A stretch of 64,000 bases of DNA from Bacilli bacterium (GCA_017477845.1 JAFUTR010000010.1:11282-75281); one strand, 5' to 3'; shown: positions 1 to 63,342, counted from the stretch's first letter. Translations and numbers: made by a program. The notes: a model not told the origin generated them from the letters alone.

Positions 1-400
1 GAACTTGTGTTACTGATACCCAATCAAGTTGTGTATGGTTTCCATATCCATATCCATAATACGCTAGTAGTTTTATTCTGTCATATTGTGCTTCTGTTAA
101 ATTAGTTACTGCTAAATAATCTTCATTTGTTATGTTGTATAATTCACCTTCTACTATATCTACCATTGGTTCTAAACAGTAAACAATCTTTCCTGTACTT
201 CTTTGTACAATCGTTGATGATCTTTTCCATTTTGTATATCCATTTGATTGTTTTTTATTTATATATACTTTTGTTTCTGTATTATCTCCATAAACAAAAT
301 CCCCAACATATTCTTGTGCTTTAACTTTTGTAGTTACAAAAACTACTGACATTATTGTTATTAATAAAAATAAGACTTTACTTAATTTATTTTTTTTCAT
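1..400 (-). CDS. Secreted protein of unknown function (5' part; the gene runs off the window start)
   Basis: ATG at 400 is preceded by GGAGGT, a ribosome-binding site (RBS). The N-terminus (MKKNKLSKVLFLLITIMSVVFVTTKVKAQE) is a signal peptide. The ORF stays open to the window edge and is missing from the ORF track because it is partial. Confidence 0.45.
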   Translation of the reverse strand, partial: MKKNKLSKVLFLLITIMSVVFVTTKVKAQEYVGDFVYGDNTETKVYINKKQSNGYTKWKRSSTIVQRSTGKIVYCLEPMVDIVEGELYNITNEDYLAVTNLTEAQYDRIKLLAYYGYGYGNHTQLDWVSVTQV

Positions 401-458
401 ATTACCTCCATTTTTCAATAAAAAAAGATAACAATTGTTATCTTTACATTTTAATAAT

Positions 459-914
459 CTATCTAATTATTTTTAAATACTCTTCTGCTACATATATAGC
501 AAATTTTTTCAAATTATTAACTTCTATCGTTAAGCTTAGAACTTTTTTATTTGAATCATTATAATCTTTAAATTTAACACTACTTATAACACCATTAGAA
601 TTTATTGGGGTTATTTCTAAATGAGCAATAGAGTTTCTTATACTTCTAAATGCATTATCATCTTGCTCATTAATTATTTCTATTTTTGCTAATAACTTTA
701 GTTCATTAATACAATTAGTTTTATAGTCTTCTATTATCTGTTTACTTTTTTCATCTTTGGTTGTCTCTATTGGTAATGTAATCATTCCAAGTAAACAATT
801 TAATAGTAATGTAACTTCATATTCTGTTTTTAATTTGTCATCTTTAATAATTTTTAATGTCCGTTCAACAAATTCAACTTTGAAATTCTTCATCTCTGAC
901 ATAACATTGAGCAC
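459..914 (-). CDS. HEPN-like protein (Rx4H motif RNSIAH); predicted RNase/toxin fold
   Basis: The translation contains ...AFRSIRNSIAHLEI..., i.e. an R-x4-H motif of the kind seen in HEPN and Abi_2-type proteins. At 151 aa it is small and stands alone inside a plasmid-like module. Confidence 0.35.
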   Translation of the reverse strand: MLNVMSEMKNFKVEFVERTLKIIKDDKLKTEYEVTLLLNCLLGMITLPIETTKDEKSKQIIEDYKTNCINELKLLAKIEIINEQDDNAFRSIRNSIAHLEITPINSNGVISSVKFKDYNDSNKKVLSLTIEVNNLKKFAIYVAEEYLKIIR

Positions 915-944
915 TTCCTTTTAATAAATTATATCATATAGTAA

Positions 945-1637
945 TTAATTTCTTTTTAGCATTTCTCCTAAATATTTTCCTGAATGTGAATAAACTTGAA
1001 TACATGATACATTTTCTGTATAAGATAATTCCTCTGAATCATTCATACAAAGTGCTTCACAATTATTAACACTACCACAGTTGGATACGTTGTAATCAAC
1101 TCTCATCCAAGAATAAAGTGGTTTATTTTCATAATCTTCTTTTGATATTCCTAATTGTTCCCATGGTTCTTTAACAATAGTTTTCTTAGGTTCTTCTTTA
1201 ACTTCATTACCACTTGAATCAACAGTTCCACTTTCTATTTCCTTTTTTTCTTCTACTACATTTTTTACTTCTTTCTTTTCTGAATCATTTTTAGTTGATT
1301 TAGTTTTCGTTTCTGTTTTAGTAGAATTACTATTATTTTTGTTACTTTCACTTATAGGTTCTTTTTTTTGCTTAGGCTGTTCCGGTGTTTTTTCTTCATG
1401 TTCCACAGGTATATCATTTAACTCTATCTTTTGACTAATTATTTCTTCTTGTTTATTTTCTGTTTCTTTTTCTTCTTTTGACTCCCTATTTTCATCGGTC
1501 TTTGAAATTTCTTTGGAAATAGGCGTTGTAACATTTCCTCTTTTTTTGTCATCTTTTTCTATGTTCCTTTCATTATATTTTTTAATTATCGTAAATGCTA
1601 GCAGAATAGATATTAAGATTATAAATACTTTTTTCAT
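945..1637 (-). CDS. Secreted lysine/glutamate-rich protein with a cysteine-containing C-terminal domain
   Basis: The internal start MKKVFIILISILLAF is a signal peptide with AAGGGAAG 8 nt upstream. The middle is a long Lys/Glu-rich low-complexity stretch. The C-terminus carries several Cys (NCGSVNNCEALC). Confidence 0.4.
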   Translation of the reverse strand: MKKVFIILISILLAFTIIKKYNERNIEKDDKKRGNVTTPISKEISKTDENRESKEEKETENKQEEIISQKIELNDIPVEHEEKTPEQPKQKKEPISESNKNNSNSTKTETKTKSTKNDSEKKEVKNVVEEKKEIESGTVDSSGNEVKEEPKKTIVKEPWEQLGISKEDYENKPLYSWMRVDYNVSNCGSVNNCEALCMNDSEELSYTENVSCIQVYSHSGKYLGEMLKRN

Positions 1638-1697
1638 TTTATCTTCCCTTCTTTTCTGCATTATATTAATTGTTGATAAAATTTACAAATGTACAAA

Positions 1698-2663
1698 TTA
1701 TCTTTCGTGTTCTCTATTCTTTAAATGTCTAGAGTAAAACTCGCAAGCTTTCATAACAAAATCTTCAATATTTTCTCTTTTTACATTTTTTGGAATAACT
1801 GTGTATAACTTTTTTTCATCAATTTTAAATTTTTCAACTTGATTTGGTTTTAATTGTAGCATTTGTTTTTCTATTTCATCTTTTGTAAGATTTCCACTTC
1901 TACTCATCTCTTTAAATGTTATTGATTGAGCATGTGATGGAGTAGATTCGTTTTTCTCAATTACATCTAAAAGCCACAATTGCTCATTCTCCTTCAAATA
2001 AGATATTTCAACAGCTGGTGACATAGCCATTTTGGGTTTTATATCAAATTCATTATTATCTACCATTTGTAATAACTCTGGAATTAAAAAAGTTAATCTA
2101 ATATATCGTTGAACTTGTCTTCCACTATCACCTTGCTCATTACCAAGCAAATCGTCGCTTCTTACTACTGCGACAACTTGTCGCACTGATGTGTCAAGTT
2201 GTTTCGCTGGTAACTTACGTTGATTTTTTAATGCATCATATTTCATTTTATATGCAAATGCCTTTTCACTTGGTAAAAGTTTTTCTCTTTGTAAGTTTGA
2301 ATCTACCATAAATATTGTTGCTTCATCATCTGATAGATTTCTAATAATACAAGGTATCGTATTTAATCCCAACAATTCACTTGCTAGTTTTCTTCTATGA
2401 CCTGATAACATTTCATACCTATTATCATCTTTTTTTCTTACGATTACTGGTGATAGCACACCACTTACTTTAATACTTTCTTCAAGTGCTTTTAATTCAT
2501 CATTTTCTTCTACTTTGAATGGATGATCTTTAAAATTATCAATTAGATTTATATTTATTTCTTCTACTTTTTCCTTTTTATCTTCATCTCTTTGTTCTTG
2601 TGTTGTAAAAAAGTCATCTACATTGAATGACATCTTTATTTCTTGTTTTTGACTCTCGTTCAT
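1698..2663 (-). CDS. parB: ParB/Spo0J-family partition protein
   Basis: LSGHRRKLASELLGLNTIPCIIRNLSDDEATIFMVDSNLQRE matches the ParB N-terminal and HTH region. An internal start (MNESQ) has a strong GGAGG RBS. The gene overlaps the 3' end of parA. Confidence 0.75.
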   Translation of the reverse strand: MNESQKQEIKMSFNVDDFFTTQEQRDEDKKEKVEEININLIDNFKDHPFKVEENDELKALEESIKVSGVLSPVIVRKKDDNRYEMLSGHRRKLASELLGLNTIPCIIRNLSDDEATIFMVDSNLQREKLLPSEKAFAYKMKYDALKNQRKLPAKQLDTSVRQVVAVVRSDDLLGNEQGDSGRQVQRYIRLTFLIPELLQMVDNNEFDIKPKMAMSPAVEISYLKENEQLWLLDVIEKNESTPSHAQSITFKEMSRSGNLTKDEIEKQMLQLKPNQVEKFKIDEKKLYTVIPKNVKRENIEDFVMKACEFYSRHLKNREHER

Positions 2664-3444
2664 AATCAAGTACCTCCTTCGCAAGTTCTAGAAAACTTTT
2701 TGCTACTTTTCCATTTTTGTCATATGATAAAATACTTTTCCCCACTCTTGTAGATTCGGCTGCTTTGACAGATCTCGGTATTTTTGTTTTAAACATTTTA
2801 AAAACCTTTCCATATGTTGATTTTAATTCTTCATGTATTTCTTTTGATAGATTTCTCCTATCATCTACAATTGTCATAAGAATTCCTCCAACATTTAAAT
2901 CAGGATTAATTTGTTTTTTTACCTTTAAAACAGTAGTCATTAAGTGATTCATATCTTTTGCTGCAAGAAATTCTGATTGTACAGGAATTATTACTTTATC
3001 TGCACATGCAAGAGCATTTATTGTTAACATTCCAAGTGATGGCATACAATCAATTAAAATATAGTCATAATCTTTCTTTAAATCTTTTATACTATTTCTC
3101 ATTGTAAACTCTCTACTCATAGCATTTACTAAACTCATCTCCATTGAAGCAAGTTCAAGATTTGTTGGAATTATATCTATTCCTTCATCATGATGTAAAA
3201 TTGCTTCTTTTGGATTCACATCAATATCATTCATAGTTCTTCCCATTAATGTATATAATGTTGTTTCAATATTCTCTGCATTATGTATTCCTATGTATGT
3301 TGTTAAATCTCCTTGAGGATCTGCATCTACTAGTAATACTTTTTTACCATTTTGAACAAGTGCTACTCCCAAATTAAAAGTAGTTGTTGTCTTTCCAACT
3401 CCTCCCTTTTGATTTGCTATTGCGATTACTTCACATTTTGCCAT
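2614..3444 (-). CDS. parA: ParA/Soj-family partition ATPase
   Basis: IAIANQKGGVGKTTTTFNLG is the deviant Walker A motif of ParA. The rep-parA-parB gene order is typical of plasmids. Confidence 0.85.
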   Translation of the reverse strand: MAKCEVIAIANQKGGVGKTTTTFNLGVALVQNGKKVLLVDADPQGDLTTYIGIHNAENIETTLYTLMGRTMNDIDVNPKEAILHHDEGIDIIPTNLELASMEMSLVNAMSREFTMRNSIKDLKKDYDYILIDCMPSLGMLTINALACADKVIIPVQSEFLAAKDMNHLMTTVLKVKKQINPDLNVGGILMTIVDDRRNLSKEIHEELKSTYGKVFKMFKTKIPRSVKAAESTRVGKSILSYDKNGKVAKSFLELAKEVLDYERESKTRNKDVIQCR

Positions 3445-3445
3445 A

Positions 3446-4207
3446 TCATCTCTCCTCTCTATTTTTGCTTTTATTCATAATAAAAGAACAATCATCTTCA
3501 AATAATTGTTCTTTATTCATACTATTGAGTTTTTCAAAATTAGATTCTAAAGCACTTTTGAAATATCCATAAACATTTTCTATTTTTTCACCATCTTCAT
3601 CTTTAAAGTCTCTTTCTATAACTCTTGGTACTATATAATGAATTGCTGAAAATAATTCTTTTGCATTATGACCTTTATTTATTTCTTGCTCAAATAAACT
3701 ATCAAATGCAAATAATAAATTATTATCTTCTTCATTTAAATATTTTTCTTTTACCAATTCTTTAGTTAAAATATTATGCTCTATTTTTCCATTTTTGGTT
3801 TTATCTATTTTATCTTTTAATTCTTTAATATTTAATTGGTGCTGATTTTCGGAATTCCGATAATCGGACGTCCGATAATCAGGTGTCGGATAAAATTCAT
3901 TTAAATGCCTTTCATTTAGAGATTTCCTAAAAACCCTATATTTATACCTAAAGTATCCTTTTTCATCTCTATATTGGCTAATTTCAATGAATCCTGCCTC
4001 TTTTAATTCATTGATGGTTGTCCTTAATGCATGCTTCTGTTCTTTACAAATTGCAACAAGCCCTTTAAAGGAATAATCCCATTCTGGTGGTAATGTAAAA
4101 AATACATACATTAATCCTTTTGCTGAAAGCGATAAATTCATATTTCTACCAATTGATGCAGGAACAATTGAATAACCATCTTCTTTCTCTATTTCAAATT
4201 CTTTCAT
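3446..4207 (-). CDS. Replication-initiator-like protein with an N-terminal winged helix, resembling the RepA_N family
   Basis: The N-terminal ~100 aa (…FFTLPPEWDYSFKGLVAICKEQKHALRTTINELKEAGFIEISQ) look like the winged-helix DNA-binding region of Firmicutes plasmid RepA_N initiators. The gene sits directly upstream of parAB. Confidence 0.4.
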   Translation of the reverse strand: MKEFEIEKEDGYSIVPASIGRNMNLSLSAKGLMYVFFTLPPEWDYSFKGLVAICKEQKHALRTTINELKEAGFIEISQYRDEKGYFRYKYRVFRKSLNERHLNEFYPTPDYRTSDYRNSENQHQLNIKELKDKIDKTKNGKIEHNILTKELVKEKYLNEEDNNLLFAFDSLFEQEINKGHNAKELFSAIHYIVPRVIERDFKDEDGEKIENVYGYFKSALESNFEKLNSMNKEQLFEDDCSFIMNKSKNREER

Positions 4208-4223
4208 ACTTCACCAGTAATAA

Positions 4224-4919
4224 TTAATCTAATATGTTATTATTTACTTCGATATTATAGTTATTCTTATGAACTCTCCTATTTCTTTTTTTCATTGCCA
4301 AAATGTATCCAACTTTTCTTTCATGAGAAACATGAAAATTGCAATAATTATTTTTATTGCGTTCACATATATACATTATTTTCCAATCAAGTAAATCGAA
4401 AAACGTTCTCATTTCACCATACGATAAATAACAATTAGGATTGTCATTATTTGTACATTTTAAATCATAATAAATATAGATATATCCACCTTCCTTAACA
4501 TTAGACATAAGTTTTTTTATTTTCTTTTTTAAACTAATATTTTCATTTTTTTTAAGATTTAAAGACTGTTCTATATATAAAAAGTCATACTTTTTTATAT
4601 CTTTTGTTAGATAATAGTTTTTGGTTTCTACCATTACAAATTGCGAAATATTATAGTCCATTATTCTTTTTATTAAACCACTTGTTTCATGATTATTATA
4701 TTTTCCACCATATAATAGAATTTTATCATCTTCATAACAAGTAACATTACATTTATATTTTGCAAAGGGAATTACATTTTTTCCATCATTTGCATCAACA
4801 ATCAAAACCTGTGAATTAGTTATTTTTTCTTTTTTTAGAAGATTAATATAATCATAAACTTGTTGATTAGGTTCGCCAAAAACACTTACTTTTTTATTAA
4901 TTCTATTTATTTTTCTCAT
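4224..4919 (-). CDS. Hypothetical protein (possible Rossmann-fold enzyme)
   Basis: The ORF is intact at 231 aa. VLIVDANDG is a weak β-strand plus Gly-rich segment. No family can be assigned. Confidence 0.3.
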   Translation of the reverse strand: MRKINRINKKVSVFGEPNQQVYDYINLLKKEKITNSQVLIVDANDGKNVIPFAKYKCNVTCYEDDKILLYGGKYNNHETSGLIKRIMDYNISQFVMVETKNYYLTKDIKKYDFLYIEQSLNLKKNENISLKKKIKKLMSNVKEGGYIYIYYDLKCTNNDNPNCYLSYGEMRTFFDLLDWKIMYICERNKNNYCNFHVSHERKVGYILAMKKRNRRVHKNNYNIEVNNNILD

Positions 4920-5106
4920 TATTTAATACTTTGATATCCCTTCTATAGTCATCAAAGGTTATACATAATCCCCCAACAGTGTTACGTTATAAAATAATTG
5001 TCAAATTTTGCTGTCAGAGACTTTTTTGTATGATTTTTTATATTTTTTTATTATTAGCCTTTTTTTTGAAATAATAAATTCCTTTATTTTTCAAGGTTTT
5101 TAGAAC

Positions 5107-5423
5107 TTATGCTATAACCCCCAAAAAAGTTGCATACCCTGTTACTGGGATTAAACCTATTACAACAGATAAATTTAATACTGCTTGAATAATAATTTGA
5201 AATACTAATCCAAAAGCTAAATACTTTGAAAATTTATCTTGACTATTAATAGCAATCTTAAATCCTAGATATAAAAATGCAAAGAATAGAGAGACTACTA
5301 TCAATACTCCTAAAATTCCAAATTCTTCACTTATAATAGAAAAAATAAAATCAGTTTGTGGCTCTGGAAGATAAAATTGCTTTTGTCTAGATTTTAAAAA
5401 TCCCATACCTAATAATCCACCTG
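5107..5423 (-). pseudogene. ftsW: FtsW/SpoVE (SEDS) gene fragment encoding the conserved motif-rich central portion (broken at both ends)
   Basis: The translation ...SGGLLGMGFLKSRQKQFYLPEPQTDFIFSIISEEFGILG...GLIPVTG carries SEDS hallmark motifs (G-GLG-S-QK--YLPE--TDFIF). The frame is open upstream to the CAGGTGG junction at 5417-5423. It ends early after VTG (YATFLGVIA*) and so lacks the expected PLPFISYGGSS tail. Confidence 0.8.
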
Positions 5424-5444
5424 AATTATGTTTTTTTGCGATTA

Positions 5445-6923
5445 TTAAATCATTTTAAAATTAAAATAAATATCTAATGTTTTATCCTGATGTATTTCTA
5501 TTCTTTTTATTAGTTTATTAATAAATTGATTATTATTTATATTAATTAAACTATTAACAACTTCTTCTTTAATGTCTATTGGTTTATATGAATAATTAGA
5601 TATTTCTTTTTTTAATAAATCTATTTCATTATTAATTTTAATAAAAAGCCTATTAAACATTTCTTCATCAATTTTATTATTTAATTTGTCTAAATACAAA
5701 TTATCTAAATTGTTTTTATTATTCTCTATTTTTATATTTAATTCTTTAGTATTATTATTTTTATTATTTATTCTAATTTTTTTATATAACAGATTTATAT
5801 CTATTTTATCTAATTCCTTCTTTAATTGTGATAGAACATTTTTTTCAACATTCAAATAATTATTAGAGTGAGATGAACACAGTTTAAGTTTTGAATATTT
5901 TTTATAAGTGTTACACATTAAATACTTTTTATTTTTATTTTTTTGGATTATTAATTTCTTTTTACATTCTCCACAATATAAAACGCCATCAAGTATAGTT
6001 TTATTTTTTTTATTTGATTTAGTATTACCATTTAGTTTTAATAATCTATTAACTTCTTCAAAGTCTTTTTCATCGATTATTTTCTCATGTGTATTTTTAA
6101 TTATAATCCAATCATCTTTTTTATTTAATTTTAATTTTCTTATTTTATAGTTGATTTTATTTCTTCTATTTTGAACTAGATTACCTGTATATAATTCGTT
6201 TTTCAAAATAGTCTTTATAGTTGTTCTATTCCAACATCCTAAAGTATTTTTTTTTATGTTTCTAAATAGTGCTGGTGTTTTTATTTTTTCTTCATTTAGT
6301 ACATTAATAATTTTATTTATTGAATATGTTGATAAAGCCATGTCAAAAATCCTTTTTACAATAGTTGCCTCTTCTTTATTTATTATTAAATGATTTTTAT
6401 CTTTAGGATCAGTCATATATCCAAATGGTGTACACCCACCTACCCATTTTCCATTTAACTGTTTTGTTCTCAAAGCTGCTTTAATTTTTTTTGAGTTTTC
6501 TCTTGAATAAAAGTCATTAATTATTGTTTTAAATGGTATAAATTCGTTATTTGAATTATCAAGTAATGTATCTATATTATCAAGAATAGATATAAATCTT
6601 ACATTGTTTTCTGGAAACCACTTTTCAATGTATTTACCTGTTTCTATATAATCTCTCCCAAGACGAGATAGATCTTTTACTATTACCATATTTATTTTAT
6701 TATTTTTTATATCTTCAATCATTTTGTTAAATCCAGGTCTATTGAAATTAGTTCCAGTATATCCATCATCTATATAAATATCATATACATTATAATTATT
6801 ATCTTTTGAATATTTTACTAATAATTCTTTTTGATTAGAAACACTTTCGCTATCAGTATTATTTTTTATTTCATCTTCTTTTGAAAGTCTAATATACAGT
6901 CCACATTTATAGTTATTATTCAT
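5445..6923 (-). CDS. Large serine recombinase (resolvase/invertase N-domain, recombinase domain and C-terminal zinc ribbon)
   Basis: The N-terminus GLYIRLSKED…VIVKDLSRLGRD is the resolvase catalytic domain with the nucleophile Ser in RLS. Cys pairs (CGECKKKL…C) form a zinc ribbon. At 492 aa it fits the family size. Confidence 0.85.
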   Translation of the reverse strand: MNNNYKCGLYIRLSKEDEIKNNTDSESVSNQKELLVKYSKDNNYNVYDIYIDDGYTGTNFNRPGFNKMIEDIKNNKINMVIVKDLSRLGRDYIETGKYIEKWFPENNVRFISILDNIDTLLDNSNNEFIPFKTIINDFYSRENSKKIKAALRTKQLNGKWVGGCTPFGYMTDPKDKNHLIINKEEATIVKRIFDMALSTYSINKIINVLNEEKIKTPALFRNIKKNTLGCWNRTTIKTILKNELYTGNLVQNRRNKINYKIRKLKLNKKDDWIIIKNTHEKIIDEKDFEEVNRLLKLNGNTKSNKKNKTILDGVLYCGECKKKLIIQKNKNKKYLMCNTYKKYSKLKLCSSHSNNYLNVEKNVLSQLKKELDKIDINLLYKKIRINNKNNNTKELNIKIENNKNNLDNLYLDKLNNKIDEEMFNRLFIKINNEIDLLKKEISNYSYKPIDIKEEVVNSLININNNQFINKLIKRIEIHQDKTLDIYFNFKMI

Positions 6924-7094
6924 TGTATTTTTCCTCTATATTATGTTCAATTATATTTTTTAGTAAATGATAAATATCATTTTTTTCATCATAAAAGAGT
7001 CTAATTTTTTCATTCATAAAAAATCCTCCTAATAGATTTTATTAAGAGGAATAAAAAATATACAAAAAAGCGTAACTTTAAGTTACACTTTTTC

Positions 7095-7895
7095 CTACCA
7101 TGATCCTGACCAATTAACTTGAGCAACGCTAATTGCATCATATTGACTTGATATACTACCTGTATGTACAATTCCTGCTGTACCAATTACTTCATGCATT
7201 AACGCGTTTAGTAACCCATTCGATGATGTTGTTGCGTGTGCATAATCCCCACATGCAATTTGATTTATGATAGTTGATGATGCATCTGTTTTTTCGACAT
7301 CAAAATAAAATGTTTGCTCTAAGGCAGTAACATTTGTTGATGTTGGTAGCCTAAATGTTGCACTTGCACCATTTGAAAATATTTGTGGAACATGTGTTGT
7401 AGAAGTATGTTGAGTTCCGCTTTGGGTATACTTTTGAGTAAAATATAAAGTATTATTTTTAGGCTTCACAGATGCATAAAATCCAATACCAATAATGTCA
7501 TATTGTCTTGTAGCTGGGATAACTTTCCAAAACAAAATATTTCTATAGCGATAATAACTTCCATTTGCAAGAAGGTATGTTGTCATTTCTTTATATGTTG
7601 TTTCAACAGTTGTGCTTGCATTGATGGAATAATTATTAATAGCGTTTGGGTCAACTGCATCATATACTATTTTGGGAATTTCGTATGTAATTGTACTTAA
7701 TACTTCAGGATCACCATTTGTACTTTGAGTACTTGTTCCGCTATTGCTATAAACAGTTACAGTTTTATAATATTTTGTTGTTTCTCCCACTACTTCAAAA
7801 CCATCTTCATCAATGTCACCTACTTGTGCAAAAACAAAATTTGGTGTCAAAAAAAATGCAATGGCTAAACATAAAAAGTATTTTAAATTTTTCAT
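7095..7895 (-). CDS. Secreted Thr/Ser-rich protein (element cargo)
   Basis: The internal start MKNLKYFLCLAIAFFLTPNFVFAQ is a signal peptide with a GGAGGA RBS. Many NxT/S sites and T/S runs follow. Confidence 0.45.
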   Translation of the reverse strand: MKNLKYFLCLAIAFFLTPNFVFAQVGDIDEDGFEVVGETTKYYKTVTVYSNSGTSTQSTNGDPEVLSTITYEIPKIVYDAVDPNAINNYSINASTTVETTYKEMTTYLLANGSYYRYRNILFWKVIPATRQYDIIGIGFYASVKPKNNTLYFTQKYTQSGTQHTSTTHVPQIFSNGASATFRLPTSTNVTALEQTFYFDVEKTDASSTIINQIACGDYAHATTSSNGLLNALMHEVIGTAGIVHTGSISSQYDAISVAQVNWSGSW

Positions 7896-7970
7896 TTTTC
7901 CTCCTTTCATTTGTAATATTACATTTTTTGATTTGTAAAGTAGTAACAAAAATGAGATTTTTTAAATTCT

Positions 7971-8672
7971 TTAAAAATTAACAATTACATATTCTTTTTT
8001 CTCATCCTTATCATATGAAAAAACTATTTTAATTTTATTTTTATTTTTTATACTCTTATTATTTACTATAAATCCAAAATTATCAAAACTTTTTGAAATT
8101 AAAGTTGGACTGTCAAATCGTTTTTCATAAATAAATACTTCTTTATCATCATAATATACTGTAGCTATTAAGGTATTTATCATTTTTTCGCTTTTTCCAC
8201 CTAATTTGTTTTCTTTATAATATATTTTATTTATTATGAGACTTGAATTTAAGTCACTATTAACAAGCATTCCCTCTACAAGCATATCTTTTCCATTATA
8301 TTGCAATTCAGTTACTTCCCAATCATCTTTTCTTAATAAAACTATTATTAAACCTATAAGCATTATTCCAATTAAATATTTTATTATTTTCCTTTTGATT
8401 CTTTTCTTTCTTTGTTCTGGAGTTTCCTTTTTCTCTTTCTCTTCTATTTTTTCACCACATAGAATTTCATCAATTTTTACACCTAATGCATCGGCAAGTG
8501 GTTTTAAAACTGTAATATCTGGCGCTAAGTCTCCTTGCTCCCATTTTGAAATTGATTTATCGTTCACTTCTATTATTTCTGCTAACTTCTTTTGAGTTAA
8601 ACCCTTGTTCTTTCTTAACTCAGAAATATGTTTTCCCATTTTAACTAAATCGCACTTATAATTATTTTCCAT
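7971..8672 (-). CDS. XRE-family HTH transcription regulator with a transmembrane segment and extracytoplasmic domain (RsgI-like or anti-sigma-like architecture)
   Basis: LRKNKGLTQKKLAEIIEVNDKSISKWEQG is an XRE-type HTH. A basic stretch and the transmembrane helix IIKYLIGIMLIGLIIVLL follow. Start MENNYK has AGGTGG 9 nt upstream. Confidence 0.55.
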   Translation of the reverse strand: MENNYKCDLVKMGKHISELRKNKGLTQKKLAEIIEVNDKSISKWEQGDLAPDITVLKPLADALGVKIDEILCGEKIEEKEKKETPEQRKKRIKRKIIKYLIGIMLIGLIIVLLRKDDWEVTELQYNGKDMLVEGMLVNSDLNSSLIINKIYYKENKLGGKSEKMINTLIATVYYDDKEVFIYEKRFDSPTLISKSFDNFGFIVNNKSIKNKNKIKIVFSYDKDEKKEYVIVNF

Positions 8673-8750
8673 ACTACTACCACCTACAAAATAATACTTA
8701 AAATATACTACTAAAAAGAAAGAATACATTTGTTGTTAACTTCTTGAAAA

Positions 8751-8785
8751 CAGCAAAAAAGATGTTGAAAAGATATTTCAACACC
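8751..8785 (-). terminator. Rho-independent terminator
   Basis: A GTTGAAA/TTTCAAC stem is followed by TTTTTTG on the minus strand, downstream of the 54-aa ORF. Confidence 0.5.
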
Positions 8786-8950
8786 TTATCTATTTGGATT
8801 AAAACTAATGATATGATAGTCTTCAAATTTATACCTATCCGGTATTTCTTGAAATTCTTTATCTTTTTGCTTAGTTAACATCTTAACTGTAGCATAAAAA
8901 GATTTTGATTCATTTTCATTATCATAATCATCATATCGATAAAATCCCAT
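8786..8950 (-). CDS. Small acidic 54-aa protein (candidate recombination directionality factor/excisionase or regulator) at the element edge
   Basis: It has a near-perfect RBS (GGAAGGAGGAATAAAT then ATG). It translates to MGFYRYDDYDNENESKSFYATVKMLTKQKDKEFQEIPDRYKFEDYHIISFNPNR. A rho-independent terminator follows at 8751-8785. It is below the ORF-track length cutoff. Confidence 0.45.
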   Translation of the reverse strand: MGFYRYDDYDNENESKSFYATVKMLTKQKDKEFQEIPDRYKFEDYHIISFNPNR

Positions 8951-9083
8951 ATTTATTCCTCCTTCCTAGCTTTTTAGAGCATAATTAAAAAGTAGCAAAA
9001 TATATCAAAAATGCCACTCTCTTAAAATGAGAATCATATCTCTTTTTTTGAGAATTATTGTAATTGGTACCTAAAAACATAAA

Positions 9084-9868
9084 CCACCTGGCCCAATAGC
9101 GTATAACGACTGAATTATTTGAAAACCTGTACCTAATGGATCACTCCAAGGATTTAAAAAAGAAGTTATTCTGTCCATTCTATAAGGTGCAATAATAATT
9201 AAAATAGTTATACCTATTACGCCTAGTAATCCTAATCCTAAAAAGAACTTTATATTAACTCCTGCTATAAATAAAAGTGCTAATACACTTACAACTATAA
9301 TCATACCTGTTCCAAAATCTGGTTCTAACATTATTAAACCAAATGTTAGAAAAAGTACAGCAAGTATAGGAATAACTCCTTTTTTTAAATTCTTAATAAA
9401 CTTATTAGAGTTTGATAAATATTTACTTGTTAAAATAATAATACTAATTTTAGTAAATTCACTTGGTTGAATACCGAATGGTCCAATTGAAAACCAACTT
9501 CTACTTCCGTTTCTTACACTTCCAATACCTGGTATTAAAACAATGATTAAAAGAATAATGCATACAAAAAATATTTTAGAACTATTCTTATAATAAAAAC
9601 TTATTTTTATTTTATTTAACAAAAATATTAAAAAAAGCCCTATTAAAAAAAATAATAATTGATGCTTCACATATTTAAATGGATCGTTGAACTTATAATT
9701 TGCCCATATACTAGATGATGAGTATATCATTATAATTCCAAATATAATTAGAATTAATGATACAAATAATAAATATTTACCTAGATTTTTATTCATCATA
9801 TCACCTAATATATTGTATAAAAATATGATAAAAAAAAGAACACAAAGTTCTTTATAACCATACTCCAA
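9084..9868 (-). pseudogene. ftsW: FtsW/SpoVE (SEDS) N-terminal fragment of about 260 aa, cut off at the element junction
   Basis: Motifs [60 protein letters not shown] follow the FtsW/RodA consensus. The frame runs into the element and stops 3 codons later (…GGL CF*). It overlaps mraY by 17 nt in dcw-cluster order. Confidence 0.85.
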
Positions 9869-10838
9869 AATATATTCCAGCCATTGTTAGAATTAATCCT
9901 ATTACCCAAAATAATTTAACAATATCTGTTTCACACCATCCTAATTTTTCAAAATGGTGATGAATTGGTGTCATTAAGAATAACTTCTTATGGAATAAAA
10001 ACATCCATAAAACTTGTAATATTACACTTAGTGTTTCTACCACAAACACACTCGCTACAACTAATAACGTTATTTCTCTATGGGTTAATATTGCAACTGC
10101 TGCCATAACAGCACCTAGCGCAAGCGAACCAGTATCTCCCATAAATATCTTAGCAGGATGAGTATTAAATATTAAAAATCCCATCAAGGCCCCAACTAAA
10201 ATGAATGTGAATATTCCTATTTCTTCAAATCCTACTTCAATTGAAATAAGCCCAAAAGCAATAAAGGCAATAGCAGATAGCCCACCAGCTAATCCATCAA
10301 GTCCATCTGTTAAGTTAACAGCATTTGAAGCTCCTATTAAAATAAACAATAAGAATACTCCATAGAACCAACCCATTTCAATATTAATACCTAATGTTGT
10401 AGAAACAAGAGAAGTTTGCCCTCCTTTTTCCATATACAAATAGAAAAAGACAAGTGATATTATAAGCTGTAAAAATAATTTTTGAAAAGTTGTTAGGCCT
10501 TCATTATTTTTCTTTTTAATACTTAAGAAATCATCTAAAAATCCTATAATCGAATATCCTATAAAGACAAATAAAATAATTTTAAGATTTGCAGTAAGTT
10601 CTAATTTATTTGCTAGAATAAGTAAAACTGTTGCAATAACAGTTGGAATAACAAATATAAGTCCTCCCATAGTAGGAGTTCCTTCTTTTTTCTTATGTGT
10701 TTCACCAACATAGATACTTATTCTTTGACCAACTTTTTTTCTTTTTAAAATTGGGATTAAAAATAGCCCCAAAACAATTGCTGATAGGAATCCTATCATA
10801 ATAGCGAAAACAGATTTAGTTAACAATAATATTCCCAT
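9852..10838 (-). CDS. mraY: Phospho-N-acetylmuramoyl-pentapeptide transferase
   Basis: This is a polytopic membrane protein of 328 aa. Motifs NAVNLTDGLDGLA and MGDTGSLALG are MraY signatures. Confidence 0.9.
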   Translation of the reverse strand: MGILLLTKSVFAIMIGFLSAIVLGLFLIPILKRKKVGQRISIYVGETHKKKEGTPTMGGLIFVIPTVIATVLLILANKLELTANLKIILFVFIGYSIIGFLDDFLSIKKKNNEGLTTFQKLFLQLIISLVFFYLYMEKGGQTSLVSTTLGINIEMGWFYGVFLLFILIGASNAVNLTDGLDGLAGGLSAIAFIAFGLISIEVGFEEIGIFTFILVGALMGFLIFNTHPAKIFMGDTGSLALGAVMAAVAILTHREITLLVVASVFVVETLSVILQVLWMFLFHKKLFLMTPIHHHFEKLGWCETDIVKLFWVIGLILTMAGIYFGVWL

Positions 10839-11030
10839 ATATTTTCACCTCAAGCTTTTTAAAGTTTATCATAAATATTAAAATATGTCATTAAATTATT
10901 AATATTTTGTCATGATTATACAATGAAATTTAACAATATATCTAATAAATGATAATACTTACACTTAATTATTATTACAAAAAACAATCTAACTATATAC
11001 AATTTTAAAAAAAGTGTCAAGAATTACTGC

Positions 11031-12938
11031 TTATTCTCCTAATAAAATTCTTATTTTACTATTTATATCTACCTTTTCACCAGGTAATGGAGATTGTTCT
11101 ATTATTTTTGAACCTGTTCCTGAATAATCAAGTTCGCAAGGATATACTTTTCCTTTAGCTTCTTTTATTGTTAATCCGGTTAAATCAGGTACTTCAATAT
11201 ATTGTATATCATTCCATTCTTTTTCTTTTACAATGCCGCCATCTTGTTTTTCTATATGTAAAGCATCAATTATATCTAGAAGTATTTTTCTTGCTACTGG
11301 TGCTGTTGTATAACTTGACAAAAGTGCTGTATTTTTAGGGTTATCAATTGCTACATATAATACTGCTTTAGGATCATTTGCAGGTATTATTGACATAAAA
11401 CTCATAATATAATTGTTTACTAGATATTTTCCGTTTTCTACTTTTTGAGCAGTTCCAGTTTTTCCACCTACTCTATATCCTTCAATATATGCATATTTTC
11501 CTCCACCTCGTGCTACTACACTTTCAAGCGCATATTTCATTATATCACTTGTTTCTTTACTTATTGTTTTTCTTACTAATTGTTTATCAAAAGATTTAAT
11601 AACACTGTTGGTTTCTGGTTCTTGAATACTTTTTACAATATATGGTTTGTATAATGATCCTCCATTTACTACTGCACTAACTGCTGTTACTTGCTGTATG
11701 GGAGTTACACTTACTCCTTGCCCAAATGCAGTAGTGGCAAGTTCCAAATCATTTACTTTATTAAGTGGGAAAATAATTCCTTCGCTTTCTCCATTTAAAT
11801 CAATTCCTGTTTTATTTCCAAAGCCAAATAAATCAAGGTAGGAAAATAATCTTTCTTTACCTAGTAAAAAACCTAACCTAACAAATCCTGGATTGCAGGA
11901 GTTTTCTAATACCTGTAAAAATGTTTGATGTCCATGTCCACCTGATTTCCAACAACCTATTCTTGTTCCACTAACTTTTACACTTCCAGAGTCATCAAAT
12001 GTATCTTTAAATAAATCTACTACTTTTTCTTCAACAGCTGATGCTGTTGTTATTATTTTAAAAGTACTACCTGGTTCGTATGAAGCCCATATTGGAAGAT
12101 TTCTATTTATTGTAGTAATATCTGCTTCTTTATAGTTATTAGGGTCATAAGTAGGTCTTGAACTCATACCAAGTATTTCTCCAGTAGATGGGTCCATTGC
12201 AACTGCAAGTGCCATATCTGGATTAAACATTGCTACTACATTATCAAGTTCTCTTTCTATAGATGTTTGAATATTGTAATCTATTGTAAGAGTTATATTC
12301 ATTCCTTGCTGTGGTGCTACATAAATATCTGATAGTTTAAGACTATTTCCTTTAGCATCACTAAAGTATTTTATTGCGCCATCTGCTCCTGTTAAATATG
12401 AGTTATACTCTAATTCTAATCCAGATAATCCTTGATTATCTATACCAACATATCCAAGTACATGAGAGAGCATTTCTTTATTAGGATAGTATCTTTTAGA
12501 TTCTTTTACTAAATATACTCCATCATATTTAAGATTATCTATTTTATCTGCTATATCATATGATAGTTGTCTTCCTTCTGGATGAACTCTTTCTATTGAT
12601 GTTTCTTTAAATACATGTTTATCCATTTCTTCTTTTGATACATTTAGTATTTTTGATAGGTTTAACGATACTTCTTCTTTATTTTTTATTTGTGAAGGGA
12701 TTAATACTAGACTAGTTGTCGTAATATTATCTGCAAGTATTATTCCATTTCTGTCAAGTATTAATCCTCTATCAGCAGCAAGTGGAAGGTTTCTACTCCA
12801 TAAGTCATTAGCCTTATCATTTAGCATTCTATAGTTAAATAGCTGTATATAAAGTACTCTTGCTATTATTAAAACTAAGAAAAATAAAAGTACTAAAAAA
12901 AGAATTCTAATTCTTTCATCTATTTTTTCACTGAACAT
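11031..12938 (-). CDS. Class B penicillin-binding protein (PBP2B/FtsI/SpoVD-type) with a C-terminal PASTA domain
   Basis: The active-site motif STFK lies in PGSTFKIITTASAV, SxN in SCN, and KTG in GGKTGTA. There is an N-terminal transmembrane helix and a C-terminal PASTA-like domain (IEVPDLTGLTIKEAKGKV). It sits upstream of mraY. Confidence 0.85.
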   Translation of the reverse strand: MFSEKIDERIRILFLVLLFFLVLIIARVLYIQLFNYRMLNDKANDLWSRNLPLAADRGLILDRNGIILADNITTTSLVLIPSQIKNKEEVSLNLSKILNVSKEEMDKHVFKETSIERVHPEGRQLSYDIADKIDNLKYDGVYLVKESKRYYPNKEMLSHVLGYVGIDNQGLSGLELEYNSYLTGADGAIKYFSDAKGNSLKLSDIYVAPQQGMNITLTIDYNIQTSIERELDNVVAMFNPDMALAVAMDPSTGEILGMSSRPTYDPNNYKEADITTINRNLPIWASYEPGSTFKIITTASAVEEKVVDLFKDTFDDSGSVKVSGTRIGCWKSGGHGHQTFLQVLENSCNPGFVRLGFLLGKERLFSYLDLFGFGNKTGIDLNGESEGIIFPLNKVNDLELATTAFGQGVSVTPIQQVTAVSAVVNGGSLYKPYIVKSIQEPETNSVIKSFDKQLVRKTISKETSDIMKYALESVVARGGGKYAYIEGYRVGGKTGTAQKVENGKYLVNNYIMSFMSIIPANDPKAVLYVAIDNPKNTALLSSYTTAPVARKILLDIIDALHIEKQDGGIVKEKEWNDIQYIEVPDLTGLTIKEAKGKVYPCELDYSGTGSKIIEQSPLPGEKVDINSKIRILLGE

Positions 12939-13035: not shown

Positions 13036-13668
13036 GTGAGAAAGTACATTGCTGAATTTGTCGGTACTGCTATGTTAACTTTAATTGCTTGTGGTGTTGC
13101 AGTTGTAACAAATAATTTAGTTGCTATTTCTTTAGCATTTGGTCTTGTTATTGTAGCTATGGCATATTCAATTGGAAATGTATCTGGTTGTCATATTAAT
13201 CCAGCTGTATCTTTAGGTTTATTTGTTGCAGGTAAGATGAAATTTGATGAATTATGGAAATACGTAGTAAGCCAAGTTCTAGGAGCAATATGTGGATCAG
13301 TTTTACTTGGAGTTATTTTAGAAAGCTTTGATGCTTTAGGAGCTAATTCTTTCCCAGATGGTAAGATATTAATGGCTCTTTTAGTAGAAGTTATTCTAAC
13401 ATTTGTATTTGTTACTGTTATTCTAGGTGTAACAGATAAGAAAGAAAACTCAAGTGTTTCTGGTATAGTAATTGGTCTTACACTTACTTTAGTTCATTTA
13501 TTTGGATGTAATTTTACTGGTACAAGTGTAAACCCTGCTAGAAGTTTAGCGCCAGCTATTTTCCAAGGAGGAGACGCATTATCTCAAGTATGGCTATTTA
13601 TTGTAGCACCTCTTGTAGGAGCATGTCTTGCAGGATATTTCTATAAGTATGTTTTAAAAACAAAGTAA
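13036..13668 (+). CDS. MIP-family channel (aquaporin/glycerol facilitator-like)
   Basis: Both NPA boxes are present (HINPAV and VNPARS), and AEFVGT is the N-terminal motif. The likely start is the GTG at 13036, 8 nt after AGGAGG. The track ORF begins at 13027. Confidence 0.8.
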   Translation: MRKYIAEFVGTAMLTLIACGVAVVTNNLVAISLAFGLVIVAMAYSIGNVSGCHINPAVSLGLFVAGKMKFDELWKYVVSQVLGAICGSVLLGVILESFDALGANSFPDGKILMALLVEVILTFVFVTVILGVTDKKENSSVSGIVIGLTLTLVHLFGCNFTGTSVNPARSLAPAIFQGGDALSQVWLFIVAPLVGACLAGYFYKYVLKTK

Positions 13669-13671
13669 AAG

Positions 13672-13704
13672 AAAAAAGGCACTTATTAAAGTGTCTTTTA
13701 TTTT
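13672..13704. terminator. Bidirectional rho-independent terminator between convergent genes
   Basis: An AGGCACTT/AAGTGTCT hairpin is flanked by A-runs and T-runs. Confidence 0.5.
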
Positions 13705-13708
13705 GTAA

Positions 13709-14263
13709 TTAATAATTCTTTTTTAAATATTCTGCTAATTTCTCGTAAGCATTTGTATTAAAACAATTTATTTGTTCTTCTTCTGTCATCTCTGAAAATG
13801 TTCTAGTATCATTTTCTGGAATGAATATCTTATCAAAATCGTATCCTCTTCCTTCATGGACTTCTTCTGCTATTTTTCCTTTAGTTATTGATGTAAATGA
13901 TATAGGAGGAGAATTCGGTTCTGCAAAACTTAAAACTTCTTCCCAATGACAATTTCTATTTTTTTCTCCTTTTAGAAGTTTTATATAACCTTCACTTTTA
14001 ATTGTATCTTCAGCAAATTTTGAAAGTGCACCTGGAAAACCATTTAAAGCATCAATAAATAGACCTGAATCATTTTTTAATACTCTTTCATTTAATATAT
14101 TTGCTGCATAACTTGATGAAAAGTCTGCAACTTTTTTACAATCAAGTGATTGTATTTCAGGAGGATCCATATCATTTTGAATTACTTCTATTCCATATTT
14201 TGAAAATATTTTCTTGGCAAGTTTAATTTTTAATTCATTACCTGTAACATAGTATAACTTCAT
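13709..14263 (-). CDS. Non-canonical purine NTP pyrophosphatase (Ham1/RdgB/ITPase family)
   Basis: GLFIDALNGFPGALS follows the Ham1 consensus (…VdaLgG.PG…). It is 184 aa. Confidence 0.7.
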   Translation of the reverse strand: MKLYYVTGNELKIKLAKKIFSKYGIEVIQNDMDPPEIQSLDCKKVADFSSSYAANILNERVLKNDSGLFIDALNGFPGALSKFAEDTIKSEGYIKLLKGEKNRNCHWEEVLSFAEPNSPPISFTSITKGKIAEEVHEGRGYDFDKIFIPENDTRTFSEMTEEEQINCFNTNAYEKLAEYLKKNY

Positions 14264-32908: not shown

Positions 32909-34702
32909 TTAATTTAATGCATACCAGATTTTTGCAACATCACTGTTGTTACTATATGGTTCTGGTGATGGTTTATCCATCTTAATTGATACTGGGACTT
33001 TAAAAGCACTTCCAAATGCTATCGCACTTCCCGGTTGTAAAGTTTTAAGTATAGCAATTACTTCATCTGTTACGTTTGGAACCATTTCTTTAATATATTG
33101 CAAGTCTTTCGGATGAAGTGTTCTTAATACAATGAAGTTTGAGCATTGTGAAATACTTGTTTCACTAAGTTCACTAGGTCTTTGAGTAATAAGTCCAAGT
33201 ATTACTCCATATTTTCTTCCCTCTTTGGTAATTCTATCAAAGATATTGTATCCAAGTAGTTCTTGATCTATATCTTTTTGAACATATCTGTGTGCTTCCT
33301 CTATTATTATATGAAATGGGAATTTCCCACGATTTTCGCTGTTGGCTGCTACTTCAAATAATAATCTTGAAATAATTTTAGTTATTGATTTAGCAGTTCT
33401 ATCATCTATATAGTTAATATTAAAACCAACTAGTTGAGCTTTACCACCATCATAAGTTGTCATCAAGTCTCTTATATATCCACTTTTCGTAACCATTTGA
33501 CCATAATTGAAGTATTCTTTATATTCTCCATTTGCCAAAGCATGTAGTCTAACTGATAAGATGTTTGCATAGTCAAATACTTTATCACTTTTTAAAATAC
33601 CTTCTGATATTAAAGCAAAGTTTAATGCTTGCTCTAAGTCATCTAGATTGTACATTACATTTCCTTTTGGATTAGGTATTTCAAATCCTTCAATTATAAA
33701 TGTTGAAATAAAGTTTACAACTAGTTCCATTTCTTGCATTTTTCCAGAATTATCTACATAGATACATTGTTTTAATGTTCTAACGTAACCTGGTTGTATT
33801 ATTTGACTTTCTAGACTTAACATATCTGTATGAAATGTGGAAAGAACTGCTGTTATTTGATCTCTTATTTTAATTGAGTCTTTTCCACTTTGTAATATAT
33901 CAAGTACTGCTCTTGCGATAATATCATTTTTGCACTTGATTGCTTCTTCATCAGTTCCTTTTAAAATAGGCACAAGTTTCAAAGCTTTTTCAATTATTGG
34001 TAATTGGCTAGCTTCAGTTGCTCCAAGTAAAAGTGCTATATCATCAACATCTAAAAGCCATAAAGGAATTCTTAAAAGTTCACTATCTTTATCTTTAGTT
34101 TCTATGTTTGTCGTATATGATTTATAATTCAACTGGTTATTAAATTCATGTAAAAATGAGAATGCGTTTTTATATTCTCCATAAGCATCAAAGACAAAGA
34201 CGCTAGCATTAACTGGTAGATACTTTGATGTTGTAAAGATATTTTGAATAATTCTTGCAAATGTACAACTTTTTCCACTACCAGTGTTACCTAAAATGGC
34301 AAAGTGGTTACTAAAGAAATTATTTACTCCAACATTTATACGATATCCATTATAAATAGCAGATTTTCCAAGATACATATGTTCACTATCACTTACTTCT
34401 TGAGGCCCAAGTACTAGTTCTAGTTCTTCTTTGTTTATTATTCTTACTACTGATGCAAAAGATGGTTTAGCATTTATTCCTGGAATAAAGGCATCATCTT
34501 GTAACTCTCCCACTATTCCTACAACAATATCTTGAATAGTAACTTTAAGTATTTCTCCCACTATTCTTTTTGTACCATCATCAAATACAACATGAATATT
34601 CATTAAGTTTCCATATCCTGAAACGTTAAATTCTATTTTAATTGTTACATAGTTACCGTTAATATCAACAATTTTACCCAAGTTCCCTATCATATTCTTC
34701 AC
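32909..34702 (-). CDS. HerA-family (FtsK-HerA superfamily, DUF87-like) ATPase with an N-terminal HAS barrel
   Basis: The N-terminal β-barrel region is followed by Walker A (GNTGSGKS), Walker B (HIIIEEAHRY) and a conserved TQRPS…SQC..FIVLR motif. It ends 58 nt upstream of sepF. Confidence 0.65.
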   Translation of the reverse strand: MKNMIGNLGKIVDINGNYVTIKIEFNVSGYGNLMNIHVVFDDGTKRIVGEILKVTIQDIVVGIVGELQDDAFIPGINAKPSFASVVRIINKEELELVLGPQEVSDSEHMYLGKSAIYNGYRINVGVNNFFSNHFAILGNTGSGKSCTFARIIQNIFTTSKYLPVNASVFVFDAYGEYKNAFSFLHEFNNQLNYKSYTTNIETKDKDSELLRIPLWLLDVDDIALLLGATEASQLPIIEKALKLVPILKGTDEEAIKCKNDIIARAVLDILQSGKDSIKIRDQITAVLSTFHTDMLSLESQIIQPGYVRTLKQCIYVDNSGKMQEMELVVNFISTFIIEGFEIPNPKGNVMYNLDDLEQALNFALISEGILKSDKVFDYANILSVRLHALANGEYKEYFNYGQMVTKSGYIRDLMTTYDGGKAQLVGFNINYIDDRTAKSITKIISRLLFEVAANSENRGKFPFHIIIEEAHRYVQKDIDQELLGYNIFDRITKEGRKYGVILGLITQRPSELSETSISQCSNFIVLRTLHPKDLQYIKEMVPNVTDEVIAILKTLQPGSAIAFGSAFKVPVSIKMDKPSPEPYSNNSDVAKIWYALN

Positions 34703-34790
34703 CTATTTTAAATTATAACATACTTTTAGAAAAAAGGAGAGTATTTTTTTAGTTTATAGTTGATAAAATAAAATTTTATTTGGAATTCAT

Positions 34791-34828
34791 TTTTTTATAA
34801 AAAATAGGAAGAAAAATTTCTTCCTATT
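34791..34828 (-). terminator. Rho-independent terminator after the DUF285 protein gene
   Basis: An ATAGGAAGAAA/TTTCTTCCTAT hairpin is followed by TTTTTTATAAAAAA on the minus strand. Confidence 0.5.
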
Positions 34829-44765: not shown

Positions 44766-44825
44766 TATATACACTCCAGTCTATGTATTAATTATAACAC
44801 ATTTTACTAATATTTCTATCAAAAA

Positions 44826-44852: not shown

Positions 44853-44854
44853 TT

Positions 44855-63286: not shown

Positions 63287-63342
63287 TTTATCACCACCTT
63301 TTCATATAAAATAATTATATCACTTTAATCTAATATTTCCTA

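Follow-up and report, generated by a model that had tools for sequence, protein, structure and literature searches.

A module of partition and initiator-like genes beside a split ftsW gene as the probable end of a conjugative element in uncultured Bacilli

The DNA analysed here is a stretch of 64,000 nucleotides from a Bacilli bacterium (GCA_017477845.1, JAFUTR010000010.1:11282-75281; the whole stretch is referred to below as the window), in which the SEDS-family gene ftsW is broken into pieces and its middle piece abuts a series of minus-strand genes, among them genes of a ParA-type ATPase and of ParB, that runs off the window at coordinate 1. We find that positions 1-5137 very probably constitute the left (attL-proximal) 5.1 kb of an integrative and conjugative element (ICE) inserted in ftsW, at least 16 kb and probably more than 35 kb long. 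According to sequence comparisons, the position that it occupies is a true hotspot for different mobile elements in related uncultured gut bacteria.

The interrupted ftsW gene and the conjugation genes beyond the window

Read on the minus strand from its high coordinates downwards, the window presents genes for a class B penicillin-binding protein (PBP) and MraY, the N-terminal part of ftsW, a 3.7-kb element, a 99-codon part of ftsW and then co-oriented genes down to coordinate 1. The N-terminal fragment corresponds to positions 5-232 of the Pfam profile FTSW_RODA_SPOVE (PF01098) and the middle open reading frame (ORF) to positions 236-326 of the 356 in the profile (E=2.5e-30). The latter ends in GLIPVTG followed by YATFLGVIA and a stop codon, while intact homologues continue instead with GLIPVTGVTLPFLSYGGSS or GVTLPFLSYGGSS. 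When the closest intact homologue (P0001, 362 aa) was compared with the window by tblastn, only its residues 1-239 and 237-331 were matched, with 78-79% identity (79% for the middle fragment), and its last 31 residues found no match in the 64 kb; the DNA below the junction is foreign to ftsW. Pfam, tblastn and the reading of the ORF thus agree with the preliminary description, which had the SEDS gene interrupted for a second time after GLIPVTG near position 5137, and the crossover is placed at 5138-5139. The recovered pieces contain no frameshift and no internal stop, and precise excision of the elements should, as far as their sequence indicates, rejoin them in frame. The window contains no second SEDS gene.

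Contigs L002, L003 and L236, which come from other sequencing runs and assemblers, have the same junction sequence, and proteins identical to those of the ICE or to the recombinase of the 3.7-kb element occur on 11-12 contigs, all of which show the same arrangement with both insertions where the contig reaches far enough; therefore the junction is not an artefact of assembly.

The window is the reverse complement of positions 23764-87763 of a longer metagenomic scaffold in ENA (XIEF21-1_SAMN15829990 scaffold_248; 98,958 bp), with 0 mismatches in the 10,902 bases compared. Exact copies of the ParA, HEPN-domain and 231-aa proteins of the module are present on 11-22 public contigs, of which the longest include scaffold_248 and k141_1882279 (115,244 bp). 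Past coordinate 1, the same strand encodes a surface adhesin, a sortase, a 146-aa protein, SSB, a NikA-like protein, a 407-aa protein and a relaxase of the PF03432 family, followed by DUF3801, a 604-aa coupling protein of the VirD4/TraG type, a 115-aa protein and TrbL_2. Hence a relaxase and a type IV coupling protein, the pair expected of an ICE, lie on one element, 11-15 kb past coordinate 1 of the same scaffold. From the relaxase to TrbL_2, the element is 98% identical at the DNA level, over 5.1 kb, to contigs L019 and L022 from other samples, which go on with DUF3846, PrgI, a 776-aa VirB4 and further genes, and which differ from each other at the point where the assemblies of the window species stop. 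Judging from these two backbones, the contigs stop at a variable cargo slot, as expected in metagenome assembly.

The module had been described beforehand as belonging to a plasmid or an integrative element of Firmicutes. The adjoining relaxase, VirD4 and TrbL_2 speak for an integrative mobile element; the module is not a plasmid, and 72,556 plasmid records contained nothing close to it: in DNA only about 250 bp of parA matched, with about 70% identity, and the relaxase was at most 37% identical to theirs. We also considered a chromosomal parAB locus (soj-spo0J in the context of rsmG/gidB, dnaA and oriC), which was rejected because the flanking genes are conjugation genes and the ftsW junction. 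The extension past coordinate 1 that had been proposed in order to find a recombinase or relaxase, the other end of the element and the missing 3' end of ftsW yielded the relaxase and the conjugation genes, but reached none of the others.

Several points weigh against the module being the end of a complete and mobile ICE. The right end, the recombinase and the 3' fragment of ftsW were not recovered for the window copy, all contigs of the species ending about 1.3 kb after VirD4. PrgI and VirB4 were seen only in the backbones of L019 and L022, which have different left-hand modules; the element is mosaic, and its far end might differ from theirs. A walk through relatives by exact protein matches reached VirB4, a 551-aa protein and Abi genes but not the end of the element, a scan of the genome collection with the right-most visible protein (261 aa) found no relatives, and scans of viral contigs gave nothing with either the C-terminus of FtsW or the 551-aa protein of the ICE as query. 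Excision and transfer are predicted from the sequence, and the element could have lost its recombinase or its right junction and be immobile.

One nucleotide of ftsW as a recurrent insertion site

The window junction reads CCAGTAACA-GG-GTATGCAAC and the uninterrupted gene of the relative L006 reads CCAGTAACA-GG-AGTTACGC; this comparison with a relative without the insertion, which the preliminary description had recommended, places the break at the GG centre. Another element joins ftsW at the same point in L004 (CCAGTAACA-GG-GTAAGTCC), and so does a further one in L111, of the P0058 type (CCAGTTACG-GG-TGTAACATTTCG), which uses the same GG, as its sequence shows, with an arm that resembles the target for a few bases more. 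In the intact site, AGGA is flanked by the two arms of a perfect 5-bp inverted repeat (GTAAC-AGGA-GTTAC), with GG in the centre. The target CCA-GTAAC-A-GG-A-GTTAC corresponds to the codons P-V-T-G-V-T, and in 73 related genomes positions 1 and 2 of these codons are 99-100% conserved, except for the first base of the Val codon after Gly (74%). The junctions contain no duplicated ftsW sequence. The attachment sites thus have the properties known from large serine recombinases, namely a short crossover, for which GG is the inferred dinucleotide, no target duplication, and arms that form imperfect inverted repeats. From the junctions, the empty site in ftsW of the window species is predicted to read CCAGTAACAGGAGTTAC and the attP of the circular form ...AAAAAAGTTGCATAC-GG-GTATGCAACTTTTTT....

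Among the 120 best homologues of FtsW, which are at most 79% identical to the window protein, at least 10 clusters from related "Bacilli bacterium" metagenome-assembled genomes (MAGs) are cut at the same codon by different elements, and roughly 10% of the top 120 clusters in this clade are interrupted. Behind the common PVTG, the proteins end directly with a stop (P0002, P0100) or continue with YTLFG... (P0068/69/71), EVLLCN (P0099), YARNWEKIV (P0053) or YALLLYSK... (P0035/38/64); in P0058 and P0041 the protein diverges two codons later, with the DNA crossover at the same GG. The earlier suggestion that ftsW is a hotspot with nested or adjacent insertions therefore holds as regards the hotspot and the adjacent insertions. 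Nested insertion was rejected, as the two elements in the window are separated by 284 bp of native ftsW.

The opposite, right-hand junctions were sought in a metagenome collection by scanning for DNA that encodes GVTLPFxSYGG without a preceding Thr codon. Of the 120 stretches returned, 114 belong to ordinary, uninterrupted SEDS genes in which this codon specifies Val or Ile, one is a frameshifted gene (L187) and one is an uninterpretable high-GC match at a contig end (L229). In the remaining four (L157, L180, L218 and L233; 22-27% GC), DNA other than ftsW abuts GG-AGTNAC..., which is followed by the complete 3' end of ftsW (GVTLPFLSYGGSS...). L157, L180 and L233 encode, in the same orientation, a recombinase of 526-537 aa whose domains are Resolvase, Recombinase and Zn_ribbon_recom and whose gene stops 70-100 bp short of the junction, and in L157 a distant VirD4 homologue is encoded just upstream of it; the contig of L218 begins about 80 bp upstream of the junction, a flank too short to show a recombinase. 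Among themselves the three enzymes show about 52% identity, against 35-39% when they are compared with the recombinase of the window's 3.7-kb element. In the genome collection, a 57-aa query from the FtsW C-terminus matched across the break point in all 80 loci kept, none of which was interrupted.

A link between these right-hand junctions and the window is provided by the arms that flank the GG. The window arm, GG-GTATGCAACTTTTTTGGGGG, agrees in 15 of 20 positions and in the same register with the reverse complement of the opposite arm of L180 (GTAAACACATTTTTTGGGGA); the latter, located beside the recombinase (CTCCCCAAAAAATGTGTTTAC-GG), mirrors the window arm. The arm of L218 agrees with that of the window in 12 of 20 positions. 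At least two types of arm are found at the site, T6G4-5 (window, L180, L218) and CGTGGTA (L004, L111). In the oriented L218 contig, the arm motif TTTACCAAAAAACTTG(C/T)AA occurs twice within positions 1-82, 31 bp apart and upstream of the 3' junction of ftsW, resembling a duplicated half-site.

These comparisons bear on two direct repeats with C5 runs, which had been proposed as att or junction scars. Both exist, although each lies one base lower than claimed (ATAATCCCCCAA at 4965-4976 and ATAACCCCCAAA at 5114-5125), and C5 runs are indeed rare, C5/G5 runs being present at only five loci of the window. The pattern ATAAYCCCCMA, which was derived from the data post hoc, occurs only in these two places in 64 kb (expected 0.14; none of 100 shuffles gave two). 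Because the window arm mirrors the L180 arm, the junction-proximal run is a part of the recombinase-binding half-site brought in from attP, so that the att interpretation is retained for this copy and that of a scar or duplication is not. Specifically, a target-site duplication was rejected, since serine recombinases do not produce one and the element does not lie between the two copies. The second copy has no counterpart in the other ftsW-site elements compared, and scans of positions 4850-5480 for promoters, terminators and repeats gave nothing above chance and no role for it.

The module, the small element and the proposed mechanism

Features of the window at and around the two insertions in ftsW (positions of the window)
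Feature	Position	Strand	Remarks
Signal peptide and N-terminus of 910-aa SpaA-domain surface adhesin	1-400	-	continues past the window
HEPN-domain protein, 147 aa	459-902 (ORF to 914)	-	PF18736, HEPN pEK499_p136
K/E-rich protein, 230 aa, membrane-anchored or secreted	945-1637 (ORF to 1661)	-	N-terminal hydrophobic anchor, Cys-rich C-terminus
ParB-family protein, 321 aa from ATG at 2663	1698-2663 (ORF to 2684)	-	Pfam ParB_N, E=2.6e-21
ParA-type partition ATPase, 276 aa	2614-3444	-	Pfam AAA_31, E=1e-56; CbiA
Replication-initiator-like winged-helix protein, 253 aa	3446-4207	-	PHROG 428, 4707, 270
First ICE gene, 231 aa	4224-4919	-	no significant family match
Second C5 copy (ATAATCCCCCAA)	4965-4976	+	46 bp upstream of first ICE gene, 149 bp inside element, outside junction arm
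attP-derived P' arm, recombinase-binding half-site	5090-5137	-	holds T6G5 block (C5 run 5114-5125)
Middle ftsW fragment, 99 aa	5107-5406	-	native ftsW DNA about 5138-5421; last 9 codons and stop ICE-derived
Inferred crossover dinucleotide GG (attL, left junction of ICE)	5138-5139	-	ftsW above, ICE below
Separate 3.7-kb element	5422-9086	-	splits ftsW at GPGG/LLG; 54-aa ORF, XRE regulator, secreted protein, large serine recombinase
Large serine recombinase of small element	5445-6923	-	Resolvase, Recombinase, Zn_ribbon_recom domains
N-terminal ftsW fragment	9071-9868	-	directly downstream of SpoVD-type PBP (11031-12938) and mraY (9852-10838)

Most of the gene assignments made beforehand for the module were confirmed by family searches. 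ParA and ParB were recognized by Pfam, ParB additionally by TIGR00180 parB_part (93 bits against a cutoff of 58), while the NCBIfam matches of ParA, to ParA_partition and PrgP-like (PrgP/RepA-like) models, are all under the cutoffs. The protein named HEPN-like with an Rx4H motif indeed matches PF18736 (E=1.2e-21; 77 bits against a cutoff of 26.6) and has the motif as RNSIAH. The K/E-rich protein possesses the predicted signal-type hydrophobic N-terminus, and no family match was found for it in Pfam, NCBIfam or PHROGs. The partial secreted protein at the edge of the window proved to be the N-terminus of the adhesin, which is complete in L008 (10503-13235), where it has SpaA domains and, at its C-terminus, VPDTL, a hydrophobic segment and the tail KRRKKK; the gene of a dedicated sortase comes next (13210-13833). 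In contrast, the initiator can no longer be called RepA_N-like: the Pfam scan of the 253-aa protein (E<=0.01) gave no RepA_N (PF06970) and HTH_36 alone (E=0.009), and its relation to initiators comes only from the phage "replication initiation protein" families PHROG 428, 4707 and 270 (E=1e-7 to 1.4e-12 for the best).

For the 231-aa product of the first gene, Pfam gave only PMT2_N with E=0.007 and NCBIfam and PHROGs gave nothing; sequence searches of the PDB with this and the 253-aa protein gave nothing significant, and a single-sequence AlphaFold model of the former was unusable (pLDDT 37.8). However, it is 34% identical over 175 aa to the product of the first gene (233 aa) of a different ftsW-site element from another species (L111 4565-5266; L110 11214-11915). 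As a junction-proximal gene kept across different cargo, it could encode an excision (directionality) factor.

The 3.7-kb element divides ftsW about 95 codons away from the ICE. Its two ends, joined, give an attP of AAAAACATAA-ttcaGGtggt-TTATGTTTTT (i.e. AAAAACATAA-N10-TTATGTTTTT), which shares a 7-bp identity (CAGGTGG) with ftsW at GPGG/LLG. Domains of large serine recombinases were detected in the enzyme of this element and in those of L157, L180 and L233, whereas the recombinase of the ICE copy in the window was not seen; each type of site is served by a large serine recombinase. The two insertions are independent, adjacent (tandem) events at different sites, and the two groups of recombinases are related. 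A native Met (GGLLG-M-GFLKS) forms the start of the middle ftsW fragment; it lies 39 bp past the stop codon of the recombinase, with AGGTGGA 9 nt upstream (5406-5445), and this piece of FtsW could be translated by read-through from the small element.

Taken together, these data suggest the following mechanism. A large serine recombinase encoded at the far end of the ICE, where the window copy is presumed to have both the enzyme and an intact right junction, would have recombined attP with the dyad-symmetric site in ftsW by exchange at the central GG, cutting off the last 31 codons without duplicating the target. To judge by family membership, the genes in the window, that of the membrane-anchored K/E-rich protein included, may serve the excised circular form: the initiator-like protein and ParA/ParB in replication and segregation, the HEPN protein possibly as a toxin or in defence, and the sortase-dependent adhesin possibly in contact between donor and recipient. 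SSB, the NikA-like protein, the relaxase, DUF3801, VirD4 and TrbL_2, together with PrgI and VirB4 as found in the 98%-identical backbones, would transfer the element. The small serine-recombinase element, which is unrelated to the ICE, lies upstream in the same gene, so that the two stand in tandem.

The gene preceding ftsW varies among related bacteria. In the window species it is mraY with the PBP gene, while in the 79%-identical relatives L110 and L111 it encodes a 395-aa protein with a match to the Pfam family F420_ligase; in L110, mraY is about 6 kb from ftsW. In L005-L007, to be compared with window positions 9071-12938, this protein is followed by a pair of genes for 518-aa and 157-aa proteins, and then by ftsW. 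Elsewhere in the window, at 42450-47245, ftsA-ftsZ are followed directly by a translocase of the FtsK/SpoIIIE type and deoD, and not by spoIIGA-sigE-sigG as in typical endospore-formers. Positions 32909-38945 encode a HerA-like helicase, with partial matches to anti-phage HerA models far under the cutoffs, and a 1373-aa surface protein with PARCEL repeats, a type otherwise annotated in mycoplasmas. A second, unrelated segment of a conjugative element (58368-63990, minus strand) runs off the far end of the window; it encodes a VirD4-like coupling protein of the CD1115 family (NCBIfam NF045973, 302 bits against a cutoff of 250) and a 746-aa protein with a SpoIID-type domain.

The fate of ftsW and comparison with known systems

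The relatives of the window species are named "MAG: Bacilli bacterium", "uncultured Tenericutes bacterium" and "Mycoplasmatota bacterium", and one closed genome among them has 1.31 Mb. The related uncultured orders RF39, RFN20 and ML615J-28 have been predicted to mix walled spore-formers with wall-less lineages (PMC10868615). In a collection of 5.8 billion proteins we found no ftsW allele of this species without either insertion, and no intact allele with more than 79% identity. With ftsW, the SEDS gene of the dcw cluster and usually essential for division, in three pieces, the question arises how these cells divide or build their wall.

The fixed appearance of the doubly interrupted allele would be understandable if ftsW were decaying in a lineage that reduces its wall, being dispensable owing to another SEDS protein, a class A PBP or the loss of peptidoglycan, and thus a neutral landing pad for elements that may by now be fixed and partly immobile remnants. 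Such a course of events is possible, if rather doubtful: it accords with the proportion of interrupted FtsW clusters in the clade, with the repeated losses of PBPs and peptidoglycan among its relatives (PMC10868615) and with the genome of a close relative, only about 1.3 Mb, but not with the undamaged reading frames of the ftsW pieces and their identity to intact orthologues, nor with the intact adjoining mraY and PBP genes and the want of a second SEDS gene in the window. Furthermore, recent mobility is suggested by the conjugation genes, whose ORFs are intact and share 98% identity with their counterparts from other samples. A weaker version of this idea is that recurrent insertion at the ftsW site may be one route by which wall synthesis has been lost in these lineages. 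The presence of both insertions in every sampled genome of the species might alternatively mean, in addition to the ICE interpretation, that the elements are regulated, and that a stage-specific SEDS gene of the SpoVE type is rebuilt by precise excision of both, e.g. for the spore cortex in a terminal mother cell; the split ftsW would then be a genetic switch on septal or cortex peptidoglycan synthesis, by analogy with skin in sigK. Both types of site are served by large serine recombinases, the class of enzymes of skin, SPbeta and gin (PMC5595907), the neighbouring PBP scores 703 bits against the cutoff of 688 of the equivalog model TIGR02214 spoVD_pbp (NCBIfam), the best model for the intact homologue P0001 is spoVE, and the orders named above are predicted to include spore-formers. 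However, P0001 remains under the cutoff of spoVE (435.6 bits against 448.8) and exceeds that of ftsW (404 against 337.5), ftsZ is followed by ftsK and deoD in place of spoIIGA-sigE-sigG, and besides the SpoVD-type PBP no sporulation gene in the window passes a cutoff (YsxE is weak, 62 bits against 263, and the SpoIID domain stands in a conjugation context). As two independent excisions would be needed and the larger element is a full conjugative element rather than a defective prophage, we regard a switch as unlikely, and consider it more likely that ftsW is dispensable or decaying and serves as a neutral landing pad.

The plasmid-type replication and partition genes of the module, and the fact that all contigs break inside the element, could also be taken to indicate a free Rep-ParAB plasmid, joined to ftsW by homologous recombination or by the assembler without a dedicated integrase. 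We consider this extremely improbable in view of the identical junction in independent assemblies and runs, the break at the exact nucleotide used by other elements in other species, the junction arm that mirrors the recombinase-side arm of L180, the distance from all plasmids on record (about 70% DNA identity in parA, at most 37% in the relaxase) and the lack of homology between the element and ftsW that could support homologous recombination. An ICE inserted by a serine recombinase thus remains the preferred explanation for the DNA below the ftsW junction.

The insertion of ICEs into genes by serine recombinases is well known and the element, as such, is ordinary and of a known general kind; what has not been described in the literature searched is a recurrent ICE target in ftsW, a gene for a peptidoglycan polymerase in which several elements of uncultured gut and rumen Bacilli use the same nucleotide. 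The searches yielded no paper in which ftsW is connected with serine recombinases or integrases or is given as an integration site of ICEs, which is no proof of novelty. The natural attB (CCAGTAACA-GG-AGTTAC) and the family of recombinases may serve as integration tools. With these observations it also becomes possible to test whether mobile elements promote or take advantage of a relaxed synthesis of the wall in the lineages that stand between walled Bacilli and mycoplasmas.

Among the ICEs of Firmicutes that use large serine recombinases are Tn5397, with TndX, and the CTn-type elements of clostridia. As in these, the element described here is a chromosomal conjugative element with a relaxase, a VirD4-type coupling protein and a VirB4-type type IV secretion system (VirB4 only in L019 and L022), the recombinase gene is at the extreme end and reads toward the junction (as observed at the right junctions, in other organisms), and the insertion lies inside a coding sequence, with a 2-bp crossover and no target duplication. 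Unlike in these, the left end carries a plasmid-like module of initiator, ParA and ParB together with an adhesin and a sortase, without a close relative in the plasmid collection, and the element's own recombinase was not seen. While TndX-type recombinases are multi-targeting (Durrant et al. 2022, PMC10083194), the target here is a single conserved dyad in ftsW. The same study reports divergent large serine recombinases that converge on one conserved coding site, in a Mg-chelatase/ComM-like gene and in a prolyl isomerase gene. The ftsW elements resemble these clusters in that divergent recombinases (about 52% identical) and different cargo share one conserved coding site, and differ from them in that ftsW contains another site, used by a second lineage of recombinases; neither ftsW nor PF01098 is named as a target in the main text or the supplements searched of that paper.

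With low-GC Gram-positive conjugative and mobilizable plasmids, the element shares ParA, ParB, an initiator-like winged-helix protein, a PF03432 (MobA/VirD2-type) relaxase and a surface adhesin with its sortase, but it is chromosomal, at a recombinase-type junction, has no RepA_N, and its best matches among plasmids are 70% identical in DNA over 250 bp of parA and at most 37% in the relaxase protein. The sporulation intervening elements (skin in sigK, SPbeta in spsM, gin in gerE, yin in yabG) likewise split a gene by means of serine recombinases, and here, too, only the interrupted allele was encountered, next to a SpoVD-like PBP and with spoVE as the best model for the SEDS protein. In contrast to them, there is no sigE/sigG layout after ftsZ, a full conjugative element is involved, two elements occupy one gene, and sporulation of the host and excision are conjectural. 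If a switch did exist, it would differ from skin in that its target is a peptidoglycan polymerase gene, one of its elements is conjugative and its host belongs to an uncultured lineage of Bacilli with small genomes.

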